64,000 nt of DNA from an uncultured Gammaproteobacteria bacterium. Its GTDB lineage: Bacteria > Patescibacteriota > Microgenomatia > JAUYPR01. The stretch is taken from the NCBI GenBank assembly GCA_964372495.1, contig CAYJQU010000001.1:2935-66934 (forward strand). Reading direction: 5' to 3'. This document shows positions 30,260-54,005 of this stretch, in pieces; positions within the stretch are counted from its first letter, which is position 1, and every line of letters starts with the position of its first letter. A program made the translations under genes and the position numbers. The notes below the pieces were generated by a model, which was not told the DNA's origin, did not search any database, and saw only the letters and a list, made by a program, of their open reading frames with translations.

Positions 30260-30260
30260 T

Positions 30261-36423: not shown

Positions 36424-36447
36424 ACCGATAATGGTAAGCTCCGAGGC

Positions 36448-36789
36448 ATGATTATACAGATAGTGCTTGGCATTTTTATTATCTTTGCAGTTAGTAGGGT
36501 GGTCCTGCAGGTCAAGAGCGGCAATTTATCACTCTTTTCTTTCGGTTTTTGGTCAGCCCTTTTTACCTTTGGACTGGTGGGTCTTGCATTTCCAGAATTA
36601 TCGACACGGTTTGCTCGCCTTGTGGGCATTGGCCGAGGTGTTGACGCTGTCATCTATGCGTCCATATTGTTATTGTTTTATCTCGTGTTTCGTCTCCACG
36701 TACTGCTTGAAGATCTTCGCCAGGAAGTAGTAGGCATCTTGCGCGAAATTGCATTGCAGAAACTACCTTCCAAGAAACCCCGTGCATGA
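36448..36789 (+). CDS. Small membrane protein, DUF2304-like (frequent partner of Dpm1-like GT2; possible GtrA-like accessory)
   Basis: 113 aa with 3-4 TM segments (IVLGIFIIFAVSRVV...GIGRGVDAVIYASILLLFYLVFRL) and a charged C-terminal tail. Confidence 0.55.
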   Translation: MIIQIVLGIFIIFAVSRVVLQVKSGNLSLFSFGFWSALFTFGLVGLAFPELSTRFARLVGIGRGVDAVIYASILLLFYLVFRLHVLLEDLRQEVVGILREIALQKLPSKKPRA

Positions 36790-37913
36790 AAATCGTACTC
36801 GTTACTGAGTATTTCCCCTCTGCTCGTAGCATCATTACTGGCGGTGTCGAGCGGCGAGTAGCTCGCATTGCTCAATTGCTTGCCAAGTATCACACAGTTA
36901 CCGTGCTGGCGGCCAACACAGTCGAGCGCGGCCAGCGTGAAGTTGCTGGGTTGCGCGTAGTGCGGTGTGGTCAGAAGCGTACGTACACTAGTCGCGGATC
37001 GCTACTTACCCGCTTACACATGCTCTTGGACATGTTTCAGAAAGGAAAGACACTTGAGTGCGATATCGTTGAAGCCAGTAACGCCACGGTGTATCTAGCT
37101 GGTTTCTTCATCGGCCTTGCAGCAAAGGCGAAACGAGTAGCATGGGTGCCAGATGTATTTGGGAGGAACGTGCTTGGCTCCCTGGGAGTTATCTCTGGGA
37201 TTGCGGCGCTTCTTATGGAGCGCGTGGGGTTGCTGCTACCGTGGGATCACTACATTGCGTTGAGTCGGCAAACAGAGGTGAAGCTGAGGAGACTCGGGGT
37301 TGCTGGTAAGAAAATTTCAGTCGTGTATGGGGGAGTGGATGTTGATGTTGAGAGGGCTAAGCCAGCCTCATATGAGCAGATACTAACTGTTTCACGCCTC
37401 GTCCCGTATAAACGGGTAGAGGATATTATTGCCGCGATGCGGCTGGTGAAACAAAAAGTTCCTAGCGCTCGCCTTCGTATTGTGGGAGATGGGTCGCAAC
37501 GAGAAAGGCTCGTCTGTATGGCACGGGAAGGCGGCGTAGGGGACTGCGTGCAGTTTATCGCTCATGTGACGGACGCTAAGCTGCAAACGGTCATGTCGAA
37601 AGCTGCCGTGTATTGTTCCGCCTCCACTGTTGAAGGTTTCGGGTTGTCAGTTATGGAGGCTATGGCACGTGGCATACCAGCGGTGATCCCTGATATTAAG
37701 ATTCACCGGGAGGTTAATACAGGAAAAGGAGTGCTATATTTCAGGCCGCAAGACCACAGAGATTTAGCGGATAAACTCATACGTCTTTTAACAGAGAAGA
37801 ACCTCTGGGAGAAAAGGAGCCGAGAAGCACGCGACCTGGCTTCGCGCTACAGTTGGCCCCTTATTGCCGCCCACACGCTTGGGGTATACAATAAGACGAT
37901 TAAAAGGAAATGA
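36786..37913 (+). CDS. Glycosyltransferase family 4 (GT-B)
   Basis: MKIVLVTEYFP...GGVERRV and C-terminal SASTVEGFGLSVMEAMARGIPAV. ATGA overlap. Confidence 0.8.
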   Translation: MKIVLVTEYFPSARSIITGGVERRVARIAQLLAKYHTVTVLAANTVERGQREVAGLRVVRCGQKRTYTSRGSLLTRLHMLLDMFQKGKTLECDIVEASNATVYLAGFFIGLAAKAKRVAWVPDVFGRNVLGSLGVISGIAALLMERVGLLLPWDHYIALSRQTEVKLRRLGVAGKKISVVYGGVDVDVERAKPASYEQILTVSRLVPYKRVEDIIAAMRLVKQKVPSARLRIVGDGSQRERLVCMAREGGVGDCVQFIAHVTDAKLQTVMSKAAVYCSASTVEGFGLSVMEAMARGIPAVIPDIKIHREVNTGKGVLYFRPQDHRDLADKLIRLLTEKNLWEKRSREARDLASRYSWPLIAAHTLGVYNKTIKRK

Positions 37914-38923
37914 AAGTCGTTGTTACTGGTGGTGCGGGGTTTATTGGGAGTAATATTGCTGCGCACTGCGCCAAAAAGGGAGATACGGTAGTTGCTATTG
38001 ATAACCTGTCGCGAGCGGGAACCGAGCGGAATATAAAGTGGTTTAAAAAGGACTTTCCCCAGATATCTTTTATACAGGGAGACATTCGTGACAGTGGCGC
38101 CTTAGAGATTGCGTTTAGCGGAGCGGATCTAATCTATCACATGGCTGCGCAGGTGGCTGTAACAACGTCGGTCGAGGACCCGCGGACTGATTTTGAAGTA
38201 AACGCTCTTGGCACCTTCAATGTACTGGAAGCTACTCGGACAAGGGCACCGGGCGCAATCGTTATTTATGCTTCTACCAACAAGGTGTATGGAGGCATGG
38301 AACAAGCTTCTGTACAAGAAATACATGGACGGTGGGAGTATGCTGACGAGCAGTTGCGCGGCAGCGGAATTCCCGAGTCGTTCCAACTGGATTTCCATTC
38401 ACCGTACGGCTGTTCAAAGGGTGCTGGCGACCAGTACGTGCGTGATTACGCCCGCATCTATGGTCTCAAAACCATTGTGTTCCGCCAATCGTGCATCTAC
38501 GGCCCTCGGCAATTTGGGAATGAGGATCAAGGATGGGTAATGTACTTTACCAAAGCTGCGCTTGAGGGAAATCCTATTACTATCTACGGAGACGGCAAGC
38601 AGATTCGGGATATCTTGCACGTTGATGATCTGATTGCTGCATATGAGGCCGGGATAGAACGAATTGACCACACCAGCGGACAGATTTTTAACATAGGTGG
38701 TTCGCCGCGGAATACGATATCTCTCCTAGAACTTATTGCGTGGCTGGAACGGACGCTTCAGAAAAAAGTGTCCTATTCTTTTGCGGACTGGCGGCCAGGC
38801 GACCAGAAAGTGTATGTTTCGGATGTTTCTGCTCTTAAGTCGATTGTTGGGTGGGAGCCGAAGATAGAAAGAGAACAAGGGCTCCAGTCGCTTCTTACGT
38901 GGGCTCAAGAAATTGTTGGCTAA
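37910..38923 (+). CDS. NAD-dependent sugar epimerase, CDP-paratose 2-epimerase (Tyv/RfbE)-like
   Basis: VVTGGAGFIGSN...DNLSRAGTERNIKW...YASTNKVYGG...QLDFHSPYGCSKGAGDQYVRDYARIYGLKTIVFRQSCIYGPRQFGNEDQGWV...NIGG...ISLLEL. This motif set matches, from memory, the CDP-tyvelose 2-epimerase family. Confidence 0.7.
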   Translation: MKVVVTGGAGFIGSNIAAHCAKKGDTVVAIDNLSRAGTERNIKWFKKDFPQISFIQGDIRDSGALEIAFSGADLIYHMAAQVAVTTSVEDPRTDFEVNALGTFNVLEATRTRAPGAIVIYASTNKVYGGMEQASVQEIHGRWEYADEQLRGSGIPESFQLDFHSPYGCSKGAGDQYVRDYARIYGLKTIVFRQSCIYGPRQFGNEDQGWVMYFTKAALEGNPITIYGDGKQIRDILHVDDLIAAYEAGIERIDHTSGQIFNIGGSPRNTISLLELIAWLERTLQKKVSYSFADWRPGDQKVYVSDVSALKSIVGWEPKIEREQGLQSLLTWAQEIVG

Positions 38924-40394
38924 AAAGCTTTCCGCGATTGCGTTTCTTGTCATCCTGACATTTGGCGTACTGTGGCAGGGGATTGACAAGCCTTTTATCG
39001 GGCAACATGACTGGAACGGAGCGTTCTTTGGGGGAATTGTCAGAAACTATCTTCGGTATGGACTGCTTACCACGAAATTTGGACAGGTATCAGGTATAAA
39101 CTACAGTACCGACAACTCTTTTCGTTACCACACCAACCATCCGTCAGGGTTTCATCTACTACTTACGCTGTCTTCCTGGATTTTTGGGCTGTCTGAGAAG
39201 TCGCTGCGGGTAGTGCCGGTCATGTTTTCAGCACTTGCCGTCGTGTATTTGTATCTTATCAGCACCTACCTTTTTAATCGCCAGGTTGGTTTGCTTGCCA
39301 GCGTACTAATACTTGCTACCCCGATGCTTCGGTATTACGGGAAGCTGCCTGTCTATGAGCCAGTGGTGTTGGCTATTATCCTGATGGGCTTATATCACGG
39401 ACTTTTATGGGTAGACAAGAGGAGGAGGCGTGACGGCGTGCTCACTGCGTTCGCTATCATCTTCTCAGGAGTGGTTGACTGGACAGGATTCTACTTCTGG
39501 CCGCTCTTTTTCCTCTGGAGCTTTATTGTAAACAGAAAAGTACCTGGGGCTATTGTATTTTGGCTGGTGTGGCTTGCAACACTCGTCCTACTTTTTGGGC
39601 ACATTTGGCTGTTAGCTGGAAGTCCCTTTGGAGGCGGCATCAGTCGGGCATTTTGGGGACGTATTGGCGTTGGGGTAGCTACTGGTGTGGCTCCATTCGC
39701 ATGGGGAGAGTTCATTGTTCAGGAAGCTCGTTGGGTAGTTGTGTATTACACACGAACTGTAGTTACGTTATCTGCAGTGTGGTGTCTATACGGCGCATGG
39801 AGATGGTTGAGGGGCAACACCTCCTTAGGTACAAAGGTTTTATTGCTTCTTGCTCCATTGGGAATTATACACAATGTGATATTTCATCAAGCAGCATGGA
39901 TCCATGACTATTTGCTCTATTACCTTATGCCGTTCCTTACGCTGAGTGCCGCTTCTGTTGTATGGCTTGCTGTAAAACGGTCGACACCGTTCATGCTTAT
40001 TGGACTGTTACTGGTGGGAACAGTTTGGTTTGAGCGAGCTCCCTTTGTAGACGCTCTTACCAGGTCGAATATGAGCCAGCCTGGATACGAATTAGGGACG
40101 TGGTTGGGAAGCACGAGTGAGCCCGGTACTCGGTTTGTGGTAGCTTCCAGCGAATTTGGTGGCTTTTTTGGCACCTTCGCGAGCTTTTATGCTGATCGGC
40201 CACTCCTGTTTTTAAAACCATCAGTTGGCGAGTGGTCAGATATTCTTGCCACGTTTAAGCCTCGTTATTTGATAGAAGTGAAGACGCACAATGAGATAGA
40301 TGAGTCATTTAGACAGAGGTATCTACGGGAAGAGCCCGTTGCGACTTCAGGCCCTTTTATTCAATATACCGTTACGTACCCAGGAAGTTCCTAG
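38913..40394 (+). CDS. Polytopic membrane protein, GT-C-like (divergent)
   Basis: 493 aa, many TM segments. No ATG nearby; TTG start inferred. The 3' end overlaps the convergent 40347(-) gene by 48 nt. Confidence 0.5.
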   Translation: MLAKKLSAIAFLVILTFGVLWQGIDKPFIGQHDWNGAFFGGIVRNYLRYGLLTTKFGQVSGINYSTDNSFRYHTNHPSGFHLLLTLSSWIFGLSEKSLRVVPVMFSALAVVYLYLISTYLFNRQVGLLASVLILATPMLRYYGKLPVYEPVVLAIILMGLYHGLLWVDKRRRRDGVLTAFAIIFSGVVDWTGFYFWPLFFLWSFIVNRKVPGAIVFWLVWLATLVLLFGHIWLLAGSPFGGGISRAFWGRIGVGVATGVAPFAWGEFIVQEARWVVVYYTRTVVTLSAVWCLYGAWRWLRGNTSLGTKVLLLLAPLGIIHNVIFHQAAWIHDYLLYYLMPFLTLSAASVVWLAVKRSTPFMLIGLLLVGTVWFERAPFVDALTRSNMSQPGYELGTWLGSTSEPGTRFVVASSEFGGFFGTFASFYADRPLLFLKPSVGEWSDILATFKPRYLIEVKTHNEIDESFRQRYLREEPVATSGPFIQYTVTYPGSS

Positions 40395-41933
40395 TATTGC
40401 AAGAGTTAAAAGGGCCAGACTGTTACCAAAACTGCGGATGGGAGTATTCTTGAGTGTAATTGTGAGATCCGACTTTCCAGAGGGGATAGAAAGACTCATG
40501 CGGCCCCCTAGTGATTCGTCAGGAACCAGTGTTTGTTGTTCTCCATTGACCCGGGCTGTCCATCCTGGCCAATAGAAGCGGTTGATGATAACTGTTGAGG
40601 ACTCAGTTGTCTCTACGGACGCCGTAATTGTATGACCTCTTTCGTCCCTGAATTGGACAGTACCGGCTGGGTTGTTGAGTAGTAGACTTGGAGCGATTGG
40701 GATGCGAAGCTTTTTCACCGTATCCCGATCGGCCCATCTTGGTAGAAATTCGCCGTCTGTGTCAGCTGTGAAAGGAATGATGCCGCTGATGCTCGATTTT
40801 TCCACTTGAAGAGCGTTGACACCGAGGTGATTACGGTTAGCTAAGATGAAAAGAGTGATCAGCGCAGCCGAGAAGAAGACTCGTCTTTTGTCGAGCAGTA
40901 GCCCTGTGAGTAGCGCAACGCCCAGCAGTGCGCTGTTAAGGAATCTCCACGGGTAGAGTACATTTGAGACAAGGGGTACTATTTTATAGAGCGGTATCGC
41001 GACAGGTTGGGTTAGAATGAGTGAACCAATGGTAGCTAAGAAGCCAAAGAGAAAAAGTCTATTTTTTCCTCTTGCGAAAAAAATACAGAGGGCAAATACT
41101 GTCCAATGAATAATCCCGAGCTGAAATGACATGGCACCACCACCCCACGGAGAGTACAAAATTGATTGCCATGGCGGAAAGTTTGCAAGATAAGCGGACT
41201 TAAGGAGTCCTGAGATGTGGGATGTTGAAGATTCTATCACCGCAGGAACCCAGAAGAAAGCTGAAAGGCCCAATCCAATAAATACTTCATGCAGCAGTGC
41301 AACGAAAGGAATTGGTCTCCTTGAGGCCATAAATACGTAGAAAAAGAAGATCGTAGTTCCTATAAGAGCTAATACATTGTGTGAAAGTATGAGTAGAGCC
41401 AGAGGTATACCTACAATGCCTCGTCTATGGGGGTAGCGATGAAGGAGGTGGTAAGCATATAGAAGGAGTGGTAGAAATAAAGTTGCCACCACTTCTCCCA
41501 CGGCTCCGCGGTGATAGAGATTCAAGAGTTTATAGGGAGCCCATACCCATGCGACAGCGCCGACTGTTGCCGCAATAGCTCCCAAGAAACTTCTAAGCCA
41601 CAGGTAAGCGGCGAGACCGGATAGGAGGGTAGCGGCCGCTAGGACAATTTTGAGCGAAACAACTGCCGACAATCCGGAAGCGTAGAGTGGGGTTGTCAAT
41701 ATATACGGGAGAGGGAAGTTAAACGATAGAACAGGAGATCCGAGGCCAGAAGCTAGGTTTCCTGCCCAGCGAGGCGGGAACTGTCCTTCCCAAAAAGCTT
41801 GCTTGTAGGCAGCGACTCTCTGGAGGTGCGCAACGCCGTCCTGGCTTTCGTAGAAGTGCGGCCCAACAAGCGGAGCAAGAAGGGGAGTGAGCACAAGAGA
41901 AAATATGGCTAGTGTAATAAGAGTTCTGCTCAT
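40347..41933 (-). CDS. Divergent YfhO-like polytopic membrane protein
   Basis: N-terminal FYESQDGVAHLQRVAAYKQAF...PPRWAGNLASGLGSP and C-terminal RFYWPGWTARVNGEQQ. Paralog of the 26210 and 54844(-) genes. Confidence 0.6.
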   Translation of the reverse strand: MSRTLITLAIFSLVLTPLLAPLVGPHFYESQDGVAHLQRVAAYKQAFWEGQFPPRWAGNLASGLGSPVLSFNFPLPYILTTPLYASGLSAVVSLKIVLAAATLLSGLAAYLWLRSFLGAIAATVGAVAWVWAPYKLLNLYHRGAVGEVVATLFLPLLLYAYHLLHRYPHRRGIVGIPLALLILSHNVLALIGTTIFFFYVFMASRRPIPFVALLHEVFIGLGLSAFFWVPAVIESSTSHISGLLKSAYLANFPPWQSILYSPWGGGAMSFQLGIIHWTVFALCIFFARGKNRLFLFGFLATIGSLILTQPVAIPLYKIVPLVSNVLYPWRFLNSALLGVALLTGLLLDKRRVFFSAALITLFILANRNHLGVNALQVEKSSISGIIPFTADTDGEFLPRWADRDTVKKLRIPIAPSLLLNNPAGTVQFRDERGHTITASVETTESSTVIINRFYWPGWTARVNGEQQTLVPDESLGGRMSLSIPSGKSDLTITLKNTPIRSFGNSLALLTLAILGTSWVRNGILNKRA

Positions 41934-41947
41934 CCTTCTGGTACAAT

Positions 41948-43381
41948 ATGCCCAATTGTAACAGAGTAGTGAAAGCCTTAATTCTTCTACTGGTACTGGC
42001 TGCCACGATACGTTTTTGGGGTCTGGGCAATTTCGATATCAGTCCCGATGAGTATCACTTTATTCAGGACGCATATCGGTTATATACCCACGACCCCTAC
42101 ATGGACGCGCGTCACCATCCATTCCGCCACGGCCAGCCATTCGTAGGTCATCCGTATTTTGCGCAGTACTGGATGATCCTTTTTTTCAACGCTCTCGGAC
42201 CATCAGTTGCTTCGGGAAGGGCCGTTATGGTTGTGGCCAATCTGGTCGCACTCGTGGGAACGTATGTGCTTGGGAGCATGCTATTTTCGAGAAAAGTTGG
42301 CCTTACTGCCGCTGCACTACTAGTTTTGCTCCCTCACGATCTTCGCTACGCGCGTGATGCACACCTTGATCCTATGCTTGGCGCAACAGTGGTATGGTCG
42401 GCCATAGCCTTATGGAAGGTGTTGACGACAAAACAGCATCATTGGGCAGCCTGGCTCGGTGTCATTTCCGCGTTTGTCTGGGCAACTAAGATAAATGGCC
42501 TCTTTCTCTTTGTCTTTTTTGCTCTAGCTGTCCTCCTATGGAGGAAGGGAGTACCTTTGCTTGCATGGATTCGCCAGCACGTTGCCTTATTGGCCACCGC
42601 GGCAGGTTTTTTTGTTGTTACCCTTGGGATCCTGGTATCGCCCGGAGCGTACGTGGACGCGCTCCTGAATCCAGCAGATCCTGAAATTGCGGGATTTTCC
42701 AAGGTCGTTATGCCATTTTTTACCTCTGGTCCACAGATGGTAAAGCATCTGATATCGACATTGTATAGCTATCCGTTCGCGCTTCTTATAGTGTTGGGGC
42801 TTGGGCGTTTACTGCTGAGGCGTGGTAAAGCCGATTTGTTTCTCCTGAGCATTCTTATTGCGTATGGGCATATTTTCATAACCCATGTTGGGCATAGTGG
42901 GGAGTATGGATATATCACCCTGAATCCCTATTTTGGGATCCTGGCAGCGTCAGTAGTCACCGGGCTGCCAAGGCGGCTTGCTTTTCCTGTAGCTGCTGTC
43001 GTTGTCCTACTCTACTTTCCTATAACCATTGTTCACGGGATGCGACTTGACGTTGGTGGTTTTAGCCAGTTTTCTCAGTTTAACGACTCAAACTTTCGGT
43101 ATGGCCAAACAGTATATAGAGATGCCATACAGGCAATTAATGAGCTGGGTGGCACTCCCACCGTGCTTTGGGTTCGGAAGGGAGACCGGCATGCTCCCTT
43201 GATGGAGATTCGCGGAGGGGTGCGCTTTTGGCCGCTCATACCACTTGCCGAGGCGGATACCGTTTTGACTGCTCATCCAGAGAAAGTTGCTGAACTGACA
43301 AGTACTCACGCGTTTCATGTCTACAGGCAGTTTCAATTCAAAGACGACCTGGTGTGGTTGCTGCGTAAAAATGAACAGTAA
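41948..43381 (+). CDS. PMT_2/ArnT-like GT-C membrane glycosyltransferase (divergent)
   Basis: 477 aa. TM, then FDISPDEYHFIQDAYRLY (DE loop). Polytopic. Divergent from the 40347(-) gene across a 14-nt gap. Confidence 0.6.
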   Translation: MPNCNRVVKALILLLVLAATIRFWGLGNFDISPDEYHFIQDAYRLYTHDPYMDARHHPFRHGQPFVGHPYFAQYWMILFFNALGPSVASGRAVMVVANLVALVGTYVLGSMLFSRKVGLTAAALLVLLPHDLRYARDAHLDPMLGATVVWSAIALWKVLTTKQHHWAAWLGVISAFVWATKINGLFLFVFFALAVLLWRKGVPLLAWIRQHVALLATAAGFFVVTLGILVSPGAYVDALLNPADPEIAGFSKVVMPFFTSGPQMVKHLISTLYSYPFALLIVLGLGRLLLRRGKADLFLLSILIAYGHIFITHVGHSGEYGYITLNPYFGILAASVVTGLPRRLAFPVAAVVVLLYFPITIVHGMRLDVGGFSQFSQFNDSNFRYGQTVYRDAIQAINELGGTPTVLWVRKGDRHAPLMEIRGGVRFWPLIPLAEADTVLTAHPEKVAELTSTHAFHVYRQFQFKDDLVWLLRKNEQ

Positions 43382-44510
43382 GTCTACACACATCTTAGTA
43401 CTGATAGATTCATGGTTTCCATATATCGGGGGTGGGCCGGTGCATGTGTGGGAGCTTGCACGTGAGCTCGTGCATAACTACTCGTACACAGTGACAGTAG
43501 TAACTCGAAAGCTGCCGGGTGACACATGCTCACGAATGGCCCCGTCTCAATTTGGTGGCAAGCTATTGGTGCATGCTGTGGGGCCGGTGCTACCGTGGGA
43601 ACATGTAGTAGGAAGACTATGGTACGTGGTGAGCGCGTTTTTTATTGGATTGCAAACGAAGGCTGATGTAATCCATGCGCACGCTTTCTCGCCATGTTGG
43701 GTTGCCAAGGTCTTAGGTAGAATCAAGGGGTGCCCAGTTGTGGTGACGGTGCATGGTACTCGTTTACTAAGCGATGCAGCTATGGGGCATGGCATGCTGG
43801 ATGGATGCTATAGGTATCTTGAGGAACGAATACTACTCCATACTCGGTACTCCCGAGTTATAAGTGTTGATGAGCAGCTCTTGCGGCTACCATCTGTCAA
43901 TAGGCCGCTGACGGTTATTCCCAATGGGACCCATATTCCTAAAGAGCGGAGAAAGAAACGGGTGCGTGCGGAAATACAACTACTCTTTGTCGGCAGATTG
44001 GTAGCGCAGAAGAATATCGCAAGTCTTATTACGGCGATCAGTGATGTCATAGAGGCGTTCCCACTGGTGCGGGTCGTTATAGTTGGAGATGGACCAGAGA
44101 GGACCTTTCTTGAAGATATGATTAAACAGAAGCGGCTTTCCGCACATATTCGATTTGCTGGAAAGGTTCCTGAAGAAAAAGTGGAGCAGTACTATAGAGA
44201 TGCAGATGCGTTTGTCCTTCCTTCATTGTATGAAGGACACTCGCTTGCGCTCCTTGCGGCGTGTGTATATGAACTGCCGGTTATTGCCACGGATGTAGGC
44301 GCCAACAGACATATGGTGAAGGATGGCGTGAACGGATATCTTGTCCCTCCCGGAGACACCAAGAAGCTATGCGATGCAATACTCAAACTGTGTGCGAGCA
44401 GGGAGAAACACCAGATGGGAAGTACGTCACGAGCTATGATTGCACGGTATAGCTGGGCCAACACTGCTCGTCAGACCCACCGTGTGTATCAGGAGCTACT
44501 TGACCAATGA
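43371..44510 (+). CDS. Glycosyltransferase family 4 (GT-B)
   Basis: MNSKSTHILVLIDSWFPYIGGGPVHV... and C-terminal LPSLYEGHSLALLAACVYELPVIATD. The ATG overlaps the upstream stop by 11 nt. Confidence 0.8.
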   Translation: MNSKSTHILVLIDSWFPYIGGGPVHVWELARELVHNYSYTVTVVTRKLPGDTCSRMAPSQFGGKLLVHAVGPVLPWEHVVGRLWYVVSAFFIGLQTKADVIHAHAFSPCWVAKVLGRIKGCPVVVTVHGTRLLSDAAMGHGMLDGCYRYLEERILLHTRYSRVISVDEQLLRLPSVNRPLTVIPNGTHIPKERRKKRVRAEIQLLFVGRLVAQKNIASLITAISDVIEAFPLVRVVIVGDGPERTFLEDMIKQKRLSAHIRFAGKVPEEKVEQYYRDADAFVLPSLYEGHSLALLAACVYELPVIATDVGANRHMVKDGVNGYLVPPGDTKKLCDAILKLCASREKHQMGSTSRAMIARYSWANTARQTHRVYQELLDQ

Positions 44511-46410: not shown

Positions 46411-47167
46411 TCTGATTACGAGAATGAAATACGCCACTCATGTCGGTAGCTCTTTGTCCATGCGCCTTGTTTACCTTACTGGGAAGTATCCATATCCAGT
46501 ACATCCGAAGCACTTGGTATCAAACCCATTGTGGTTTAAGAGAGTATTGAGAAAGAATGCGCGGGTGCTTGATTTGGGTTGTGGTAATGGGCAGATAACA
46601 CTCAAAAGTGCCCAGTATTGTCACTGGATTGTAGGGGTGGAAAGAAATCCAACAAATCTCGAGACGGCACATACAGAAGTGAGGAAACGGAGTATCCACA
46701 ACGTTTCCTTTGTCAGGGCTGACTTGGAGCAGCAACTACCGTTTCACGCACAATCGTTCGACGTAGTGCTTCTGCTTGACGTACTGGAGCATGTGGAAAA
46801 GGATGCTCAACTACTGAGGGGAATACATAGGATTTTGACAAAACGTGGAGTTGTGTGTGTGGCAGTACCGAATCGTGAGACACGCTGGAAGAGGGAACAA
46901 CGAAAAGCTGGTTTGTCCGGTTACTCCGACAAGGATCACAAGCGGGAATACACAGAAGAAGAAATTCGGGGTTGCATGGAAGCTTCTGGATTCCAAATTC
47001 AATCGATCGAACCGGTCACCTACGATACATGGGCTGCAGGACTGATTGATCTATTAGGGGGAATTTCTCTGTCTCTCTATGACAGATGTAGTGTATGGAA
47101 AAGACGTATGGTTATTCGATATCCGGGGGAGACGACAGGGTGGCGGATTATAGGGCAAAAATTATGA
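46403..47167 (+). CDS. Class I SAM-dependent methyltransferase
   Basis: VLDLGCGNGQ (motif I), FDVVLLLDVLEHV, GVVCVAVPN. Overlaps the upstream gene by 8 nt. Confidence 0.7.
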   Translation: MRSLITRMKYATHVGSSLSMRLVYLTGKYPYPVHPKHLVSNPLWFKRVLRKNARVLDLGCGNGQITLKSAQYCHWIVGVERNPTNLETAHTEVRKRSIHNVSFVRADLEQQLPFHAQSFDVVLLLDVLEHVEKDAQLLRGIHRILTKRGVVCVAVPNRETRWKREQRKAGLSGYSDKDHKREYTEEEIRGCMEASGFQIQSIEPVTYDTWAAGLIDLLGGISLSLYDRCSVWKRRMVIRYPGETTGWRIIGQKL

Positions 47168-48396
47168 AGGTTCTCCAGGTTCTTGATTATTACCGTCCGT
47201 ATGGCGGAGGGGGAGCTGAGTGGAGCGTGCTTGAGTTAAGTCGGGGTCTTCGTGAGTATGGTATTGAATGTACTACGATCGCTCCAGGATGGGGGGAGCC
47301 GTCGGAGGAGAGTGCGTATGGAATATTCAGTTCGTTTGCTGTACCAGTGCGGCCCAAGCCAAACAGCGTTCTATCTCCAATATGGCTCTCAAATCCTTTT
47401 TTCTGGGTGTGGTCGGGGCTATGGATTCTTTTGAAGATCATAGCCGAACGCCCCGATATAGTGCATGTTCATGGAAAATATATGATTCCAGGTTCTGTTA
47501 TCGCTGGTGCGGTGACTCGGGCGAAAATAGTAGTAACACTGCGGGACTATATTCCGTTATGCCCGTGGGGCGTATGTCTTTTTGGTGGCGGGAGTACTCA
47601 CAAGGGCATAGTAGATTTCCTCAGTGACGAGCTTCCACAGTATATGCGTCTTTATGGGCTCCAAGGGAGTTGGCGAAAGGTCGTAGTCCTCCTAGGGGGC
47701 TTATGGGGGTTTGTGTATGCTGCAATCTTAAGAGGCTGCTTATCAAGGGCAACTCAGGCCATCTATTTATCTGATCTACAGGCTGGTTTCTATCGCAAAA
47801 GTGGATACCCAAAAGGTGTGATTATTGGGAATCGCTGTACGGTGGATCGGTCCAAGATATATAGGGTTACGAATACAGTATTGTACGCTGGGAGACTGAG
47901 TTATGGAAAGGGCGTTGATAGATTACTTGCAGCGTGGAAAGCGATCGTCGAGAAAAAACCTGGATGGCAGTTAGTGTTGTGCGGAGACGGACCGCTCCGT
48001 GAGCTGGCTGAATTATATCGGCGTCAGCAAAATAGAATTATCATACAGGGGTATAATTCCCACGAGGAACTTTTGAGAATGTATAAAAAAGTCGCGTTTA
48101 CCGTTGTGCCATCGGTATGGCCGGAGCCGTTTGGGCGGGTAGTCATGGAGTCGGTTCTTTCTGGGACACCCGTCTTGGCAACTACCCATACTGGTACCGC
48201 AGGATTCGTACGCTCGTGCCGGGTGGGGTGGATTGTAGAGCCAGATGTTGATGCGCTTTCTAGGGGACTTTTCCTGGCAACTGCCAATGCGGCCTCAATA
48301 CGTAGAAGGATTGGAGCGCAACGCAGTCAACTCGCAACTCAATGGGATACTGCGGTTGTTGAGGAACACATGAGAATATACAGGAGCTTTTTATGA
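47164..48396 (+). CDS. Glycosyltransferase family 4 (GT-B)
   Basis: MKVLQVLDYYRPYGGGGAEW... and C-terminal VVPSVWPEPFGRVVMESVLSGTPVLAT. ATGA overlap. Confidence 0.8.
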   Translation: MKVLQVLDYYRPYGGGGAEWSVLELSRGLREYGIECTTIAPGWGEPSEESAYGIFSSFAVPVRPKPNSVLSPIWLSNPFFWVWSGLWILLKIIAERPDIVHVHGKYMIPGSVIAGAVTRAKIVVTLRDYIPLCPWGVCLFGGGSTHKGIVDFLSDELPQYMRLYGLQGSWRKVVVLLGGLWGFVYAAILRGCLSRATQAIYLSDLQAGFYRKSGYPKGVIIGNRCTVDRSKIYRVTNTVLYAGRLSYGKGVDRLLAAWKAIVEKKPGWQLVLCGDGPLRELAELYRRQQNRIIIQGYNSHEELLRMYKKVAFTVVPSVWPEPFGRVVMESVLSGTPVLATTHTGTAGFVRSCRVGWIVEPDVDALSRGLFLATANAASIRRRIGAQRSQLATQWDTAVVEEHMRIYRSFL

Positions 48397-49481
48397 GGCT
48401 GGGGATTGTTTTGGCACCGGGGGAAAGTCTTGCGGTGTTGCGTGAGTCAGGTCAGGATGAGCGGTTTCTGAAGTACTACATTCCCCAGTATGAACGGGCG
48501 TTTGAGCATATCAGCCTTTTTTCATACGCAGCTGAGTCCCATGTGATTTCAACAAAGACCAGCGTTGTGCCAAATCGACATTATCTGAACCGTTTCCTGT
48601 ACCTGGCGCTCATGCCTTTCCTGACGCCTCTTGGTACATGTGATGTGATACGAGTAACTCAGGCTACCAGCATCTTACCTGCTGTTCTTGCCAAGTGCCT
48701 CTTTGGCAGTAGGGTAGTGGTGACGTATGGCTATGATTACGTTGCTTTTGCCAAGGCCGAGGAGAAACAGCTTCTTGCGTTCCTACTTCCTTACTACTTG
48801 CACCTTTTGCGTTTTGCGGATGCGGTCATTGTTACAACTCAGGATCTCAAGATTACTATCAAGCCATTTGCGGGAAGTGCCAGAGTAGTACTTATTCCAA
48901 ATGGGGTTGATTTGGATTTCTTTACCCCCAGCAAGAAGCAAAAGGGGCCGCCGTGGAACGTACTGTATGTGGGTCGTATGGAGCCAACCAAAAATGTTGA
49001 TACACTTATACGTGCGGTTGCATCGACCGATTGCGCCTCTGAAATTCATCTGACGTGTGTGGGTTCTGGTAGCAAGCGCGCAAAGCTTTTGGGGTTGGCC
49101 AAACAACTTGGAGTTAAGGCAAGATTTACGGGAGCAGTGCCACACACCAAGCTACCGCTCCTGCTTAAGGAAGCACATGTGTTTGTGCTCATATCGAGCG
49201 CTGAAGGACATCCCAAAGCACTCATTGAGGCACTAGGGGCAGGGCTTCCGTGTCTTGTGTCAGAGGAAGCAGGACGTGCGGTGGGGATACGAGATGGAGA
49301 GGAAGGAGTCACCGTTGCGGTGGAAGTTCCGGAAGTTGCTCGTGCGTTGTATGCGTTACTCTCCATGCGCTCTTTGGGGGTAATGGGAAAAAAGGCCCGT
49401 GCTTTGGCTGCTACCCATTTCGACTTAAAAAAACTGTTAGGCAGAGAAACTGATCTGCTTATCTCTCTGTGCCTTCGATGA
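48393..49481 (+). CDS. Glycosyltransferase family 4 (GT-B)
   Basis: C-terminal FVLISSAEGHPKALIEALGAGLPCLVSE. ATGA overlap. Confidence 0.75.
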   Translation: MRLGIVLAPGESLAVLRESGQDERFLKYYIPQYERAFEHISLFSYAAESHVISTKTSVVPNRHYLNRFLYLALMPFLTPLGTCDVIRVTQATSILPAVLAKCLFGSRVVVTYGYDYVAFAKAEEKQLLAFLLPYYLHLLRFADAVIVTTQDLKITIKPFAGSARVVLIPNGVDLDFFTPSKKQKGPPWNVLYVGRMEPTKNVDTLIRAVASTDCASEIHLTCVGSGSKRAKLLGLAKQLGVKARFTGAVPHTKLPLLLKEAHVFVLISSAEGHPKALIEALGAGLPCLVSEEAGRAVGIRDGEEGVTVAVEVPEVARALYALLSMRSLGVMGKKARALAATHFDLKKLLGRETDLLISLCLR

Positions 49482-50563
49482 AAGTTCACTTTCTCTTCCC
49501 ATCTCCAAAGAAGCCATGGGTTGCACTAGTGAAGAACGGCAAGGCACCTGATCATCCACTGTATGGTCTCACCTATTTTCCAGGGTTAGGTCTGGATGTG
49601 TCCTTTAGCGACAAGGGATTTACCGATAGTATCGCTAGTTTTCTGTTTTCTCTAGTTGATCGGTGGTTTCGGTCGCGGACGTACATGGGTTTTAAGCCAC
49701 TTGTCGTACTGGCGCAGCTGGTCGAAATGAGGAGAGCACAGGTGATTGTCAGTTTTGCTGAGAACGTAGGCCTGCCAGCATTGCTGTGTAAAAAACTTAG
49801 ATTTATTTCTGCCCCTGTCGTTTTTGTAAGCATTGGCTTTGACCACAGATTCTTGCGGCGAGCATCTTTTATGAGACGATTTGTGGGGATTTTACTAAAA
49901 GAAGCCAGGCGGATTGTCGTATACTCAAAAAAGGAGAAGGAAGTGTATCATAAAGTTTTTGGGATTTCACCGGAGAAATTACGCGTGGTTTCCCTGGGAG
50001 TGGATATGGAGTTTCTCAGACCAGAAGAGTCTGAAGAGCCAATTGATATTCTTGCAGCAGGAAGAGATTACGGGAGAGACTTTGGCACATTGCTTGAGGC
50101 TATACGCGGCACCCAGTATACGGTTGTGCTCGTTTGCCCAAAAGAACACCTGCCAAATACCCCGTTACCAGAGAACGTAACACATTACGAGCATGTCAGC
50201 TATAGGAAAATGCGTACGCTGTACAGCAAAACTAAGATTGTTGCAGTGACAGTGCATCCCTATAAGACGTCCGGCCAATTCGGTATTCTTGAGGCATGGG
50301 CGATGGGAAAGGCCGTTATTGCAAGCGATGTTTCGCGTATTGTGACTGCGTTTTCAGCAGTTGACGGAGAACATTATCGCCTTGTTACTCCAGGAAGTGT
50401 CACCAAGTTACGCGAGGTGATTGACGAACTACTCGGAAGTGCCTCGCTGTGGAGACGCTACGGGCGGCAAGGACGGAGCTTAGTAGTACATAATCACACC
50501 AGCAAGTCCTATGCTCAGGCAGTGGCCTCTGTAGTAAAGGAAGTTGTTGATGGGCAAGGCTGA
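49478..50563 (+). CDS. GT-B fold glycosyltransferase (GT4-like, divergent)
   Basis: C-terminal HPYKTSGQFGILEAWAMGKAVIASD. ATGA overlap. Confidence 0.6.
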   Translation: MKVHFLFPSPKKPWVALVKNGKAPDHPLYGLTYFPGLGLDVSFSDKGFTDSIASFLFSLVDRWFRSRTYMGFKPLVVLAQLVEMRRAQVIVSFAENVGLPALLCKKLRFISAPVVFVSIGFDHRFLRRASFMRRFVGILLKEARRIVVYSKKEKEVYHKVFGISPEKLRVVSLGVDMEFLRPEESEEPIDILAAGRDYGRDFGTLLEAIRGTQYTVVLVCPKEHLPNTPLPENVTHYEHVSYRKMRTLYSKTKIVAVTVHPYKTSGQFGILEAWAMGKAVIASDVSRIVTAFSAVDGEHYRLVTPGSVTKLREVIDELLGSASLWRRYGRQGRSLVVHNHTSKSYAQAVASVVKEVVDGQG

Positions 50564-51641
50564 GCTGTCGGTTTGCTATTTCGGGTCTTATGCCCGCAAG
50601 TATTCGCGAAACAAGATACTGATTGATGGTCTTACGAAAAACAACGTAGTAGTTTTGCATTGCCAGAGCTCATCTGGTTTGTTCCTGTGGCGCTACGCAG
50701 AGCTTCTGAGGACCTATTGGCCACTTCGAGGTAGTGTCGATGTAGTACTCGTGGGATTTCGAGGACATCTGGATATGCCGCTGGCGTGGCTCCTTGGCAG
50801 GATAAGTGGAAAGAAGATAATTTTCGATGCGTTCATCTCTATTTACGATACCTACTTAAATGATAGGAAGATTTTTTCAAAGTATAGCATTCGCGCAATT
50901 TTCTATTATATCGTTGACTGGTTTGCGATTACACTTGCCGATCATGTCGTATTAGATACAAATGCTCAGATTGATTATTTTACGAGGACTTTTCGGCAAC
51001 CCCGTAGTAAGTTTACTAGAATATTTGTGGGTGGGGATGATACCGTATTTGTTCCACGGAAAAAGAGACCAAAACAATATATTCTTGTCGAGTGGCATGG
51101 TATTTTCACTAGGTTGCATGGACTGGAAACTGTGCTTGAGGCGGCAAAGCGTCTTGAGCAAAATTCCCAGATACGATTTTTAGTGATAGGTGATAATCCA
51201 CATTTTCGGATATCTGATCGGGCGCACCAGCTCCTGACGGTGAAGAAGCCCAAGAATCTCTTATGGGAGAGGTCGCTGCCGCTTGAGCAGCTTGCGCAAC
51301 GTGTGACTGAAGCTGACATCAGCCTTGGCCACTTCGGTACAACAGAAAAAGCGCTCAACGTGTTAACAAATAAAATCTTTCATGGACTAGCTGTAGGGAA
51401 CGCGGTGATTGTAGAAAGCTCTCCGGCGTCCAGTGAGCTACTGACCGATGGCATCAATTGTGTCTTTGCGAAATCAGGGGATGCGAAGAGTTTAGCACAG
51501 AAGATTGAATATTTGGTTGAGAATGAAGATGTGCGTTCCAGGATCGCCGAAGCAGGGCACTCTTTATTTTTTGAAAGACTGACGAATTATAAGCTGGGAG
51601 GGGAATTAAAGCGATGTATTCTGCAGGTAATAGAGATCTAA
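50550..51641 (+). CDS. Putative GT-B fold glycosyltransferase (divergent, AT-richer gene)
   Basis: 365 aa. Rossmann-like alternation. C-terminal GNAVIVESSPASSELLTDGINCV resembles the GT1 donor-binding region. Last gene of the + operon. Confidence 0.5.
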   Translation: MGKAELSVCYFGSYARKYSRNKILIDGLTKNNVVVLHCQSSSGLFLWRYAELLRTYWPLRGSVDVVLVGFRGHLDMPLAWLLGRISGKKIIFDAFISIYDTYLNDRKIFSKYSIRAIFYYIVDWFAITLADHVVLDTNAQIDYFTRTFRQPRSKFTRIFVGGDDTVFVPRKKRPKQYILVEWHGIFTRLHGLETVLEAAKRLEQNSQIRFLVIGDNPHFRISDRAHQLLTVKKPKNLLWERSLPLEQLAQRVTEADISLGHFGTTEKALNVLTNKIFHGLAVGNAVIVESSPASSELLTDGINCVFAKSGDAKSLAQKIEYLVENEDVRSRIAEAGHSLFFERLTNYKLGGELKRCILQVIEI

Positions 51642-51653
51642 AATTTCTTCGGT

Positions 51654-51691
51654 AGAGTATGTTCAATATATCAGTATATTGAACATACTCT
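51654..51691. terminator. Bidirectional intrinsic terminator: perfect 17-bp inverted repeat with 4-nt loop
   Basis: AGAGTATGTTCAATATA-tcag-TATATTGAACATACTCT, followed by TTTTAATG on + and an A/T-rich stretch on -. Lies between the convergent 50550(+) and 51693(-) genes. Confidence 0.6.
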
Positions 51692-51692
51692 T

Positions 51693-53006
51693 TTAATGTC
51701 GTGCTAAGAACTCGGTTACAACGTCGGCAACATAGTTTCGTTCTTGCTTTCCAATCCCCGGCCAGACGCCGATGAAGAATGTGTCTTCGAGTATTTTGTC
51801 TGAATTGGTGAGCTCGCCAACGACGCGGTGAGGGATATTACGATACGGTGCATGCCGTAGAATGTTTCCTGCAAAGAGTGAGCGAGTCTCGACCAGATGC
51901 TCTTCAAGATACAGGGTAATATCTCTTCGAGAAAATGGCGCGCCATCTTTAATAGTGAGGGGGAAGCTGAACCAGCAAGGATCGGCTTTTGGCAGCGACC
52001 GCGGGAGTATGAAATAATCTTCATACTTTTTGAATAATTGATAAAAGAATTCAAAATTTTCTCTTCTTTTTTTCACAAATTCAGGAAATCGGTCCAGTTG
52101 CACAAATCCCATTGCGGCTTGTACCTCCGTAGGTTTGAGGTTAAAGCCTATATTGGCGAACATATACTTGTGGTCCGCGGGATGCCCGTTAATGAGGAAA
52201 CCAAATCGATTATTGCAAGCTCCCATGGGGTTTTGCTCAGTTGATTTGCAGTAGCATGCCCGTCCCCAATCCCTCAATGAGAGAGCAGTCTTGTACAACC
52301 GTTCGTCGCTGACGAACACGGCTCCTCCTTCGCCAGCTGTTGTCATATGATGTGCAGGGTAGAATGACTCAGTAGCCAGAATGCCGAAACTTCCCGTTTT
52401 TTTGCCCGCATACTCCGATCCAAGAGCATCGCAATTATCTTCAATCAGGAGCAACGCGTGTTCCTTGCACAGACGCGTAAGTGTGTCCATGGCGTTTGGG
52501 TTTCCAAGTGTATGCGGGACAAAGATGGCCTTTGTTTTGCGACCGATGGCGTCTGAAAACTTCTCGGCAGGTATGTTTAAGGTGTCGAGTGCAACATCCA
52601 AAAAGACTGGTGTAAGTCGGTAAAAAAGGAGTGGATTTACGGTAGTTGGAAACGTGCAGGCTGGTGTAATGACCTCGTCACCCTCACGAAGTCCCCAGGA
52701 GAAATTTGGTGACGAGAGGGTAGCAATGGCAAGCAAGCTTGCCGATGAACCACTATTAGTAAGAAGTGCTTTCGGCACTCCTATATAGGAAGCAAGTTTT
52801 TTTTCTAGTTGTTCGCCTAAGGATCCGAGTCCAAACCACCCGTCTAGTATCGCGGTAACCATCGCCGTTACTTCCTGTTCGCCATAGTAGGCACCCGCAT
52901 AGCGGACGCGGGTTTTTCCCGGTATGAATTGGCGCATCTCCTGTTGGTGAGCGACGTATTGCTGGATGAGTGTAAGCAAGCGTTTTTTTATGGTATCGCC
53001 CTTCAT
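51693..53006 (-). CDS. DegT/DnrJ-fold PLP/PMP enzyme, CDP-4-keto-6-deoxyglucose 3-dehydrase (RfbH/DdhC, E1)-like
   Basis: 437 aa. LRDWGRACYCKSTEQNPMGACNNRFG...HKYMFANIGFNLKPTEVQAAMGFVQLDRFPEFV. The Cys cluster after DWGR and the overall pattern resemble RfbH/E1 rather than a plain aminotransferase. Confidence 0.65.
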   Translation of the reverse strand: MKGDTIKKRLLTLIQQYVAHQQEMRQFIPGKTRVRYAGAYYGEQEVTAMVTAILDGWFGLGSLGEQLEKKLASYIGVPKALLTNSGSSASLLAIATLSSPNFSWGLREGDEVITPACTFPTTVNPLLFYRLTPVFLDVALDTLNIPAEKFSDAIGRKTKAIFVPHTLGNPNAMDTLTRLCKEHALLLIEDNCDALGSEYAGKKTGSFGILATESFYPAHHMTTAGEGGAVFVSDERLYKTALSLRDWGRACYCKSTEQNPMGACNNRFGFLINGHPADHKYMFANIGFNLKPTEVQAAMGFVQLDRFPEFVKKRRENFEFFYQLFKKYEDYFILPRSLPKADPCWFSFPLTIKDGAPFSRRDITLYLEEHLVETRSLFAGNILRHAPYRNIPHRVVGELTNSDKILEDTFFIGVWPGIGKQERNYVADVVTEFLARH

Positions 53007-54005
53007 TTAGTTGGCCCAGTAGTGGGATTTGTATTGGCGATAGAAGGTAATCGTCTTTGCGAGCCCTTCCGTAAGTGGTGTTCTGGGCTTCCAGCCAGAG
53101 ATAGAGTGAAACTTTTGGTAATCACCGATATAGTCTCCGCTTTCGATCTTTCTGCGCTCCTCAGTGTACTCCTTGTATTCAATGCGTCCACTTTTGGCGA
53201 TTTCAATGGCTTGTTGAACGAACGCAACGAGTGATACTCCCTGGTTACTACTTATCACGAATGCATTCCCTTCTGCCTCAGGGATACTGGCTGAAAGCAG
53301 GAATGCGTGTGTTGCGTCGTCTACGTGTAGAAAATCACGCAGCTGCTTGCCATTTCCGAAGATTGGTACTGCTTCGTCATCAATGATCAGGCGGAGAAAG
53401 AAGTTTTGTACGCCGTATTTTGTATGCTGCATCTGGTGTCGATGACCGTAGATATTGGTGAGGCGCAAACTGACAGCTCTGAGCCCACAGATGCGACGGT
53501 AAATAAAGTGATAGTGCTCACCGGCGATTTTATGTGCGCCATATATGTCGATTGGTTCCATCGGAGTTTCTTCGGTAACTGGCAGTGCAGCAGGAACCCC
53601 ATACTGTGCTCGAGACCCAGCGTACACTACCAACACATGCGGATTAACCTCGCGACAGGCTTCTAGCAGTGTAAGCTGGCCACGACAGTTTATATCGAGG
53701 TCTAGGTAGGGATCTTTCATGCTATCGACATGGCTTGTTTGTGCTGCGATGTTAAAAATAATGTCCTTTTCTTTAACAGCTTTTTGTATTGCCTCGCGGT
53801 CACGTATGTCTCCCGTGATGAAGTGTACGCGATCCCTGATCTCCTCTATATTAAAAAGATTCCCCCCGTACCCTGGTAGGAGCGCGTCATAAAGGGTTAC
53901 ATCTGCCTTAAATTCGATAAGGGCTTGGGCAAGATTACTTCCTAGAAAACCTAGTCCGCCAGTAATAAGAATCTTCTTTCCCGGGAAGAATTGTGTTGGA
54001 TTCAC
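53007..54005 (-). CDS. NAD(P)-dependent sugar epimerase/dehydratase (extended SDR)
   Basis: ILITGGLGFLGSN (Rossmann) and the YGAHK catalytic YxxxK. Immediately upstream of the RfbH-like gene with no intergenic gap. Confidence 0.75.
   Translation of the reverse strand: MNPTQFFPGKKILITGGLGFLGSNLAQALIEFKADVTLYDALLPGYGGNLFNIEEIRDRVHFITGDIRDREAIQKAVKEKDIIFNIAAQTSHVDSMKDPYLDLDINCRGQLTLLEACREVNPHVLVVYAGSRAQYGVPAALPVTEETPMEPIDIYGAHKIAGEHYHFIYRRICGLRAVSLRLTNIYGHRHQMQHTKYGVQNFFLRLIIDDEAVPIFGNGKQLRDFLHVDDATHAFLLSASIPEAEGNAFVISSNQGVSLVAFVQQAIEIAKSGRIEYKEYTEERRKIESGDYIGDYQKFHSISGWKPRTPLTEGLAKTITFYRQYKSHYWAN

Follow-up and report, generated by a model that had tools for sequence, protein, structure and literature searches.

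An RfbH/E1-type dehydrase, an abutting dehydrogenase/reductase and a TyvE-family epimerase in a surface-glycan island of an uncultured bacterium

What does an E1-type 3-dehydrase do in a surface-glycan island in which its classical partners are not found? The question is raised by a 64-kb stretch of contig CAYJQU010000001.1 (positions 2,935 to 66,934), from an uncultured bacterium; this whole stretch is called the window here, and coordinates are counted from its first nucleotide. A reading made from the sequence alone had seen in it the components of one cytidine diphosphate (CDP)-3,6-dideoxyhexose pathway: an RfbH/E1-like gene (51693) preceded by an extended short-chain dehydrogenase/reductase (SDR) gene (53007), both on the minus strand, and a Tyv-like gene (37910) on the plus strand. 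The coordinates and motifs given for these three genes are all present in the translations. The reading that we favour, with modest confidence for the package as a whole, is that the SDR feeds the E1, that a ketoreductase finishes the product and a glycosyltransferase (GT) attaches it, and that the Tyv-like enzyme works separately.

The E1-type dehydrase and its electron supply

51693-53006, minus strand: RfbH/E1-type nucleoside diphosphate (NDP)-4-keto-hexose 3-dehydrase (E1 component of EC 1.17.1.1), predicted to depend on pyridoxamine phosphate (PMP) and a [2Fe-2S] cluster; 437 aa, last gene of a minus-strand operon

The 437-aa protein, which carries RDWGRACYCKSTEQNPMGACNNRFG...DHKYMFANIGFNLKPTEVQAAMGFVQL, scores 525.4 bits against the NCBIfam model NF011936 (RfbH, cut-off 423) over residues 3-435. 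Compared with the PDB, it matches the E1 of Yersinia pseudotuberculosis (3bcx) at 392 bits, ColD at 181 bits and true aminotransferases at no more than 146 bits, and it is 44% identical to the Yersinia E1 over 434 aa. His219 is aligned with His220 of E1, the position marked by the H220K variant (3bb8), and Cys192, Cys251, Cys253 and Cys264 are aligned with Cys193, Cys251, Cys253 and Cys261. When the 120 best homologs from the database are aligned together with one RfbH from Sphingomonas, the histidine and all four cysteines are invariant (121/121), and the Lys-type DegT neighbours in two comparison loci (L094 and L096) show Lys in the His219 column. The four-Cys [2Fe-2S] motif and the replacement of Lys by His set E1 and SpnQ apart from aminotransferases and ColD (PMC8987622). 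Judged by these residues, the gene encodes a genuine enzyme of the E1/RfbH class, with the DegT fold, His in place of the Lys that binds pyridoxal phosphate (PLP), and the four Cys of the cluster. The sequence-only reading had likewise called it an E1 dehydrase and not an aminotransferase, a call borne out by the score above the RfbH cut-off and by the invariant residues; the PLP-binding Lys and unconserved Cys that it named as pointing the other way are not seen among the 121 sequences.

The E1 of Yersinia and Salmonella (DdhC/AscC/RfbH, CDP-6-deoxy-L-threo-D-glycero-4-hexulose 3-dehydrase, 3bcx) shares with the window protein the length of 437 aa, the catalytic His and the four aligned Cys. 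Counted from the alignment, the spacing is C-X57-C-X1-C-X7-C in E1 and C-X58-C-X1-C-X10-C in the window protein, and the three-residue insertion before the fourth Cys is common to the whole environmental RfbH clade. The surroundings of the two differ, because the window gene has no adjoining E3 (DdhD/AscD), RfbF or RfbG and is preceded instead by an uncharacterised SDR gene within a GT2/GT-C operon. ColD, the GDP-4-keto-6-deoxymannose 3-dehydratase of the colitose pathway, has the same fold and catalytic His and needs no E3; it has no Fe-S cluster and its PMP is regenerated with glutamate (PMC8987622), whereas the window protein keeps all four Cys. SpnQ and the actinomycete NDP-hexose 3,4-dehydratases of the dTDP pathway are, like the window protein, of the E1 type with the His and the [2Fe-2S] motif, and SpnQ takes its electrons from ferredoxin/ferredoxin-NADP reductase (FNR) or flavodoxin/reductase pairs, not from E3 (PMC8987622). 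The rfbH genes of Streptomyces plasmids, whose products are 44-46% identical to the window RfbH, adjoin a canonical dTDP-glucose 4,6-dehydratase gene (rfbB), a 2,3-dehydratase gene and polyketide synthase genes, none of which occurs in the window.

How exceptional is an E1 gene with no E3 beside it? A database search with RfbH gave at least 7,999 clusters at E <= 1e-30; the best 120 of these are 52-76% identical, and those with a named source, annotated as RfbH, are from Patescibacteria, DPANN archaea and others. A metagenome scan gave at least 597 confirmed stretches, of which 80 loci were kept for counts of gene context (about 90 with others added). RfbF and RfbG flank RfbH in roughly half of the 80 metagenomic loci. 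All context searches for E3 used a single query, the E3 of Sphingomonas, and with it an E3 homolog at E < 1e-8 was found adjoining RfbH in only two of the 80 (L078 and L089) and in the reference locus L009. The match is strong in L078 and L009 alone, the neighbour in L089 being weak and FNR-like. Weak FNR-like genes lie just downstream of RfbH in L028, L042, L026 and L070, and L037 has a marginal match of 36 aa; in all, an E3/FNR-like gene adjoins RfbH at about 7 of the roughly 90 loci. No E3 was found in the seven closest RfbH contexts (L001-L008) or beside the Streptomyces rfbB-rfbH clusters. As far as gene context tells, the absence of E3 beside RfbH is the norm and not the exception. The four FNR-like open reading frames (ORFs) in L028, L042, L026 and L070 align with the C-terminal part of E3 at 18-24% identity; no ferredoxin domain was detected in them, and they may be divergent, ferredoxin-less substitutes for E3.

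The same holds for the window itself. A Sphingomonas plasmid cluster (E3-rfbF-rfbG-rfbH-rfbC-SDR) served as the classical reference for six-frame tblastn, and its E3 gave, at E <= 10, only matches of at most 29 aa with E values of 1.7 or more. A dedicated E3 (DdhD/AscD) joins a 2Fe-2S ferredoxin domain to an FNR-like domain. A ferredoxin-type Fe-S Cys motif was found in no real gene in any of the six frames, the only match being spurious and out of frame. 3,6-Dideoxyhexoses had been described as classically confined to a few Gram-negative O-antigens and as unusual in such a setting; at the level of genes this is wrong, considering the at least 7,999 clusters and at least 597 metagenomic stretches, and relatives of the window RfbH also lie among PMT_2 GT-C genes (L006, L007 and L010). 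That the genes are embedded among GT-C enzymes is correct, the window having at least 14 GT-C-like ORFs (PMT_2, PMT, PTPS_related or YfhO).

The abutting SDR, the operon and its convergent neighbour

53007-54005, minus strand: extended SDR of an uncharacterised subfamily (G-[ST]-R-x-Q-Y-G; S131/Y155/K159; NAD+-type Asp40), from motifs and alignments

The ATG of RfbH comes directly after the stop codon of the SDR gene (TAA), so that the genes abut and are not fused tail-to-head as had been stated; they are probably translationally coupled. No NCBIfam model reaches its cut-off with the SDR, and it could not be placed in a characterised family, as a subfamily profile run against the PDB puts GalE-like enzymes, TyvE, RmlB-like enzymes, Pal and UXS within 194-146 bits. 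Where RmlB reads T-D-E, RfbG S-D-K and Tyv T-N-K, the SDR reads S131-R132-A133-Q134; all of 120 homologs keep Arg132, and the residue at position 133 varies among G, Q, A, N and S. To our knowledge, every characterised 4,6-dehydratase carries an Asp/Glu or Asp/Lys pair. By the known rules the predicted protein is not a 4,6-dehydratase, and the earlier suggestion that it is either that enzyme or the terminal synthase fits neither cleanly, considering the S-R-A motif and the NAD+-type Asp. An ArnA-like uronate decarboxylase, in which Arg132 could bind the carboxylate, is kept as a minor possibility, since the S-E motif is missing; no UDP-glucose dehydrogenase was found, either in the window or around those close relatives of the SDR whose contexts were examined.

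Asp40 is invariant in the family, and an NAD+-type Asp is found in enzymes that transiently oxidise their substrate. The family (homologs P0126-P0244) is split about 62:58 into Tyr-type members and Asn-type members, the latter with Asn for the Tyr of YxxxK (DVNGINK), and Arg132, His92, Asp94 and Asp40 are invariant or nearly so in both. Three Tyr-type relatives (52-54% identical) were followed along their loci: SDR328 precedes an RmlD-like reductase and then an E1-type gene (L010), SDR329 precedes an RmlD-type 4-ketoreductase (L095; TIGR01214 at 260 bits, above cut-off), and SDR327 precedes a second SDR of 303 aa (contig of P0151). In the lineage of the window the next gene is E1. For Asn-type relatives (41-50% identical) the gene directly after the SDR encodes a Lys-type DegT aminotransferase, as seen in L094/L097, L096, two Azospirillum plasmids and Indioceanicola, and this is so for each Asn-type example examined (loci including L094, L096, L099, L105 and L106). 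E1, RmlD and the aminotransferases all consume keto-sugars, and on the simplest reading the SDR family would make one. Our tentative proposal is that the G-[ST]-R-x-Q-Y-G family might form keto-sugars, as non-canonical 4,6-dehydratases or C4 oxidases, for E1, RmlD-like enzymes or aminotransferases, and that SDR and E1 might together be a minimal E3-independent 3-deoxygenation cassette, its product being delivered to the surface by a GT2/GT-C lipid-carrier route in an uncultured lineage rich in GT-C enzymes.

In the favoured reading the steps would be as follows. The NAD+-type SDR, with its S-R-A-Q motif, would make an NDP-4-keto sugar, acting either as a C4 oxidase or as a 4,6-dehydratase of a non-canonical kind. 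E1 would then form the PMP ketimine at C4 and expel the 3-OH, and its [2Fe-2S] cluster would be reduced by housekeeping ferredoxin or flavodoxin reductases, in the manner of SpnQ, with no dedicated E3. The NDP-3-deoxy-4-keto product (3,6-dideoxy if the SDR dehydrates) would be finished by a ketoreductase, and the finished sugar would be added to a cell-surface glycan by the convergent GT-B described below or by the GT2/GT-C polyprenyl-phosphate route.

The place of the SDR gene also invites the opposite order, in which the SDR is the terminal 4-ketoreductase (Prt/RfbS/RfbJ-like) or an epimerase acting after E1 and the 4,6-dehydratase is encoded elsewhere. In the RfbG-carrying loci L016, L022 and L061 a second SDR directly adjoins RfbH, and the SDR in that place is often a reductase; moreover, the S-R-A motif has no dehydratase residues, and the best single PDB match of the SDR is the epimerase TaTyvE (133 bits). 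However, the reductases that adjoin RfbH elsewhere share only 26-31% identity with the SDR and carry NADPH-type Arg or Ser after beta-2 and the motif G-T-C-x-E-Y-G, as against the invariant NAD+-type Asp of the SDR family. After the true relatives of the SDR comes a gene for an RmlD-type reductase or an aminotransferase, an arrangement that would be superfluous or serve no purpose were the SDR the ketoreductase, and we regard this order of steps as improbable.

The genes and the repeat that surround the pair are these:

50544-51641, plus strand: GT-B glycosyltransferase (Glyco_trans_1_2/GT4-like, Pfam), convergent with RfbH
51654-51691, no strand assigned: perfect 17-bp inverted repeat (17 pairs, loop of 4)
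54026-54847, minus strand: class I S-adenosylmethionine-dependent methyltransferase (Pfam Methyltransf_11/23/25)
54844-56454, minus strand: GT-C-like polytopic membrane protein (PTPS_related, Pfam PF10131, 30 bits)
56461-57996, minus strand: probable GT-C-like membrane protein, a weak assignment (Pfam TMEM260-like, 21.5 bits, cut-off 24.2)
58003-58692, minus strand: GT2 of the polyprenyl-phosphate hexose synthase type (Pfam Glycos_transf_2), first gene of the operon

The tightly packed minus-strand operon (58692 to 51693) consists of six genes, in the order GT2, GT-C-like, GT-C-like, methyltransferase, SDR and RfbH. The GT-C-like protein at 54844-56454 is 26% identical to its paralogs at 40347-41933 and 26210-27910, and the GT2 has sub-threshold NCBIfam matches to dolichyl-phosphate hexose transferase, PpgS and ArnC. 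The inverted repeat lies in the 51-bp gap between RfbH and the convergent GT-B gene and is likely a bidirectional terminator. Homologs of that GT-B are located immediately downstream of RfbH and convergent with it in L004 (67% identity) and L005-L007 (45-47%), and none was found in the 80 more distant RfbH loci; on this conservation, the GT-B is the best candidate transferase for the E1-derived sugar. The 631-aa protein at 59612-61507(+) has no Pfam match, but L005 encodes a homolog (10385-12253; 29% identity, 250 bits) next after the conserved GT, and the RfbH neighbourhood may include this uncharacterised protein as another conserved component.

Small polyprenyl-phosphate-type GT2 proteins and GT-C transferases are also the parts of the Arn (ArnA/B/C/D/T) and mycobacterial PpgS-Rv3632-Rv3779 modules, and the Arn and PpgS/Rv3779 modules work by the GT2/GT-C polyprenyl-phosphate route. 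Arn-type modules and the window operon both hold tailoring enzymes (an SDR and a DegT-family protein) in one operon, but the DegT member of the window has His (a dehydrase) and not Lys, and its SDR lacks the Ser-Glu motif of ArnA/UXS. The GT2 scores 23 bits against the ArnC model (cut-off 529), all GT2 matches in the window are far below the family cut-offs, and what the operon has in common with Arn is only the GT2-plus-GT-C architecture. A formyltransferase gene (ArnA-N/Fmt-like, 62299-63114, minus strand) overlaps a polysaccharide deacetylase gene (ArnD-like, 63039-63983, minus strand) at the window edge; these may be pieces of an Arn-like formyl-aminosugar route with its other genes past 64000. 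The whole could be taken for an Arn-like aminosugar module, in which the E1-like protein is mainly a transaminase and the formyltransferase and deacetylase process an amino sugar on a lipid carrier. In its favour, the related SDRs of L094 and L097 stand in the order GT2, SDR, Lys-type DegT and have a polysaccharide deacetylase and large membrane proteins close by, the two edge genes are 9-11 kb from RfbH, and SpnQ has aminotransferase activity when no reductase is present (PMC8987622). E1 and ColD, however, show no such transaminase activity (PMC8987622), the RfbH homologs all keep the His and the four Cys, and the two edge genes belong to another transcription unit that runs off the end of the window. 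An aminosugar module is thus highly improbable in our estimate.

The TyvE-family epimerase and the classical pathway

37910-38923, plus strand: TyvE-family (CDP-tyvelose 2-epimerase-like) NAD+-dependent sugar-nucleotide 2-epimerase, 337 aa
35749-36423, plus strand: PpgS-like GT2 (NCBIfam PpgS 154.7 bits, below the cut-off of 370)
36448-36789, plus strand: DUF2304 small membrane protein (Pfam DUF2304, 66 bits)
38913-40394, plus strand: GT-C (PMT_2, Pfam, 29.3 bits), overlapping the end of the Tyv-like gene

The motifs of the Tyv-like protein (DNLSRAG, STNKVYG, QLDFHSPYGCSKGAGDQY, DQGWV, NIGG...SLLEL) had been read as the tyvelose 2-epimerase set, and membership of the TyvE family is confirmed by matches of 352 bits to the TaTyvE of Thermodesulfatator (9rl0; 47% identity) and of 301 bits to the Tyv of Salmonella (1orr). 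The TyvE family (SDR1E, EC 5.1.3.10) is marked by the triad Thr124/Tyr164/Lys168, the TNK and VAM segments and Gln205 (PMC13098431). The STNKVYG and YGCSK of the window protein align with TaTyvE and Salmonella Tyv, so that the TNK segment and the Thr/Tyr/Lys triad are present; the VAM segment reads VAV (Met to Val), and the equivalent of Gln205 (DQGW) is conserved. TaTyvE converts CDP-glucose and CDP-mannose into each other (PMC13098431, PMC7851689), and CDP-3-deoxy-glucose is no substrate for it (PMC7851689).

The order in the operon is a nucleotidyltransferase (NTase) and, further on, the PpgS-like GT2, DUF2304, GT4, the Tyv-like gene and GT-C, which resembles the layout of epimerase, GT2, small membrane protein and GT-C in lipid-linked sugar modules, and, unlike classical Tyv, the gene has no Prt, RfbH, RfbF or RfbG neighbours. 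The pair of PpgS-like GT2 and DUF2304 (35749-36789) resembles mycobacterial Rv3631/Rv3632; such a pair is also seen in L095, near an SDR of the 53007 subfamily. Three cultured homologs of the Tyv-like protein that were examined (51-53% identity; Bradyrhizobium, Azospirillum brasilense and Ensifer) lie in clusters without rfbH. Membership of the TyvE family is firm. The encoded enzyme most likely supplies a 2-epimeric NDP-hexose within its own operon, and a link to the product of E1 is possible. A single pathway split over two operons, as first proposed, is unproven, as 13 kb separate the Tyv-like gene from RfbH, the two are on opposite strands and in different operons, and no Prt-like gene stands by the former.

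The other classical partners were sought with the Sphingomonas cluster as reference. Tblastn found no true RfbG in the window, the only matches being the two SDR genes (25-26% identity); these score 77-78 bits against TIGR02622 (RfbG; cut-off 278) and read S-R-A (53007) and T-N-K (37910). No RfbF was found in the window either, the NTases at 28543 and 30871 sharing only 31% and 29% identity with the Sphingomonas RfbF and scoring 95.9 and 70.6 bits against TIGR02623 (RfbF; cut-off 300). Ten queries for a terminal 4-ketoreductase (Prt/RfbS, RfbJ, AscF-like) matched only the same two SDRs in the window, at 21-31% identity. The earlier observation that E3, the CDP-glucose 4,6-dehydratase and the cytidylyltransferase cannot be clearly identified in the window is in agreement with these tblastn and NCBIfam results. 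It had also put forward the NTase at 30871 as a candidate cytidylyltransferase, but this enzyme is not RfbF-like by either measure and follows a set of heptose genes:

27928-28536, plus strand: GmhA-like (Pfam SIS; NCBIfam below cut-off)
28543-29250, plus strand: HddC-like NTase (Pfam NTP_transferase; NCBIfam below cut-off, mannose-1-phosphate guanylyltransferase slightly above HddC)
29114-30259, plus strand: HddA-like kinase (Pfam GHMP kinase; NCBIfam below cut-off)
30222-30884, plus strand: GmhB-like phosphatase (Pfam HAD; NCBIfam below cut-off)
30871-31563, plus strand: second sugar-1-phosphate NTase (best NCBIfam match mannose-1-phosphate guanylyltransferase at 132 bits, HddC at 93 bits)

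Three of the four proteins encoded at 27928-30884 rank the expected NCBIfam model first, and although the scores are below cut-off they are coherent as a set, which points to a complete-looking cassette for GDP-D-glycero-alpha-D-manno-heptose; this heptose would be an unexpected component of a glycan island that is not of the lipopolysaccharide type. The second NTase is a paralog of the HddC-like one (31%). The heptose was considered as a substrate of E1 and rejected, because the cassette is 21 kb away, on the opposite strand and in another operon, with nothing connecting the two.

The nucleotide carrier of the E1 substrate is not given by the relatives of RfbH. In a neighbour-joining tree, built without bootstrap and therefore indicative only, the window RfbH is placed in a clade that is separate from the large group associated with RfbF/RfbG, and the Streptomyces dTDP-type enzymes fall in the large group. 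Upstream of RfbH in the window clade are found RfbF and an S-D-K SDR (L005), an RmlD-like SDR and an FdtA-like cupin (L006), GT2 and GT-C (L007) or a T-D-E dehydratase (L014); as these partners vary within the clade, the carrier cannot be inferred from context. In L005 (contig JBFOMN010000878.1 of GCA_040960375.1, 600-4313) genes for a thiamine pyrophosphate-dependent enzyme, an HMGL-like aldolase and an acetaldehyde dehydrogenase adjoin a set of RfbF, RfbG-like and RfbH genes, neighbours that are reminiscent of the synthesis of branched-chain (yersiniose-type) 3,6-dideoxyhexoses.

These results bear on the most conventional explanation, namely that the organism has a classical pathway to CDP-paratose, CDP-tyvelose or a related 3,6-dideoxyhexose, with RfbF, RfbG, E3 and Prt encoded elsewhere in the genome, E1 and Tyv as parts of one split pathway, and the GTs of the island installing the sugar. 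On the one hand, the family assignments of E1 and Tyv are solid, and the plus-strand GT array ends with the GT gene that is conserved beside RfbH. On the other hand, RfbF, RfbG, E3 and Prt were not found in 64 kb of an otherwise self-contained glycan island; the Tyv-like gene stands 13 kb off on the other strand, beside a PpgS-like GT2, DUF2304 and GT-C and with no Prt-like gene; its cultured homologs that were examined lie in clusters without rfbH; and TaTyvE, which acts on CDP-glucose and CDP-mannose, rejects CDP-3-deoxy-glucose (PMC7851689). The clade of the window RfbH (in the same tree without bootstrap) is also seldom strongly RfbF/RfbG-adjacent, and its dehydratases vary between S-D-K and T-D-E. 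We regard the classical pathway as unlikely here, though as the likeliest of the alternatives.

Several observations weigh against the reading that we favour, and some of them speak for the classical pathway at the same time. The SDR lacks the Asp/Glu or Asp/Lys pair of the dehydratases, with Arg132 and Ala133 standing there instead, and its keto-forming role is inferred from gene order only. The sample behind that gene order is small (about 12 independent loci), and the aminotransferase-coupled relatives are a sister subgroup with Asn for the catalytic Tyr and so are imperfect proxies. A 4-ketoreductase to finish the product was not found in the window. A homolog of the Tyv-like protein (40-51% identical) adjoins RfbH in 10 of the 80 metagenomic loci, typically in the order RfbH, Prt-like SDR, Tyv, and an RfbH ortholog that is 57% identical stands in L005 beside an S-D-K RfbG-like SDR and an RfbF that is 41% identical to that of Sphingomonas. 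Finally, the window covers 64 kb of a contig of 208 kb, and RfbF, RfbG, E3 and Prt genes elsewhere may restore the classical pathway.

The island and the wider families

The window is a surface-glycan island of about 48% G+C, and its gene content consists almost wholly of glycosyltransferases, methyltransferases and sugar-nucleotide enzymes, with only two extended-SDR genes (37910 and 53007). No tRNA genes were found in it, and promoter-like sites in the window show no enrichment over shuffled sequence. Three tandem paralogous ORFs of 815, 790 and 836 aa occupy 11971-19260(+); their mutual identity is 31-38%, and they have no NCBIfam match except for one faint PgfM2-like tail. A HIT-family protein is encoded within the island at 11405-11899(+) and might be a sugar-nucleotide hydrolase or phosphorylase.

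What do these genes tell us about the families to which they belong? The RfbH and Tyv-like proteins are further members of known and widespread families, and the pathway would be an ordinary deoxysugar pathway, no rarity. Uncultured bacteria and archaea frequently encode E1-type dehydrases, as a rule with no E3 and in many cases with no RfbF/RfbG beside them, and TyvE-family epimerases also occur outside dideoxyhexose clusters. The lesson for annotation is that a match to the RfbH or Tyv family does not by itself predict a paratose or tyvelose O-antigen. Most interest in the locus attaches to the S-R-x-Q SDR family, which is uncharacterised, and to the way in which its genes are coupled to those of enzymes that consume keto-sugars. 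If the favoured reading is true, the SDR and E1 together with a generic flavodoxin reductase would be a compact system in which the reduction of an E1 without E3 could be tested, and the same locus would probe the role of the widespread S-R-x-Q family. It would also add a deoxysugar variant to the GT2/GT-C modules for lipid-carrier decoration that dominate this region of the genome.

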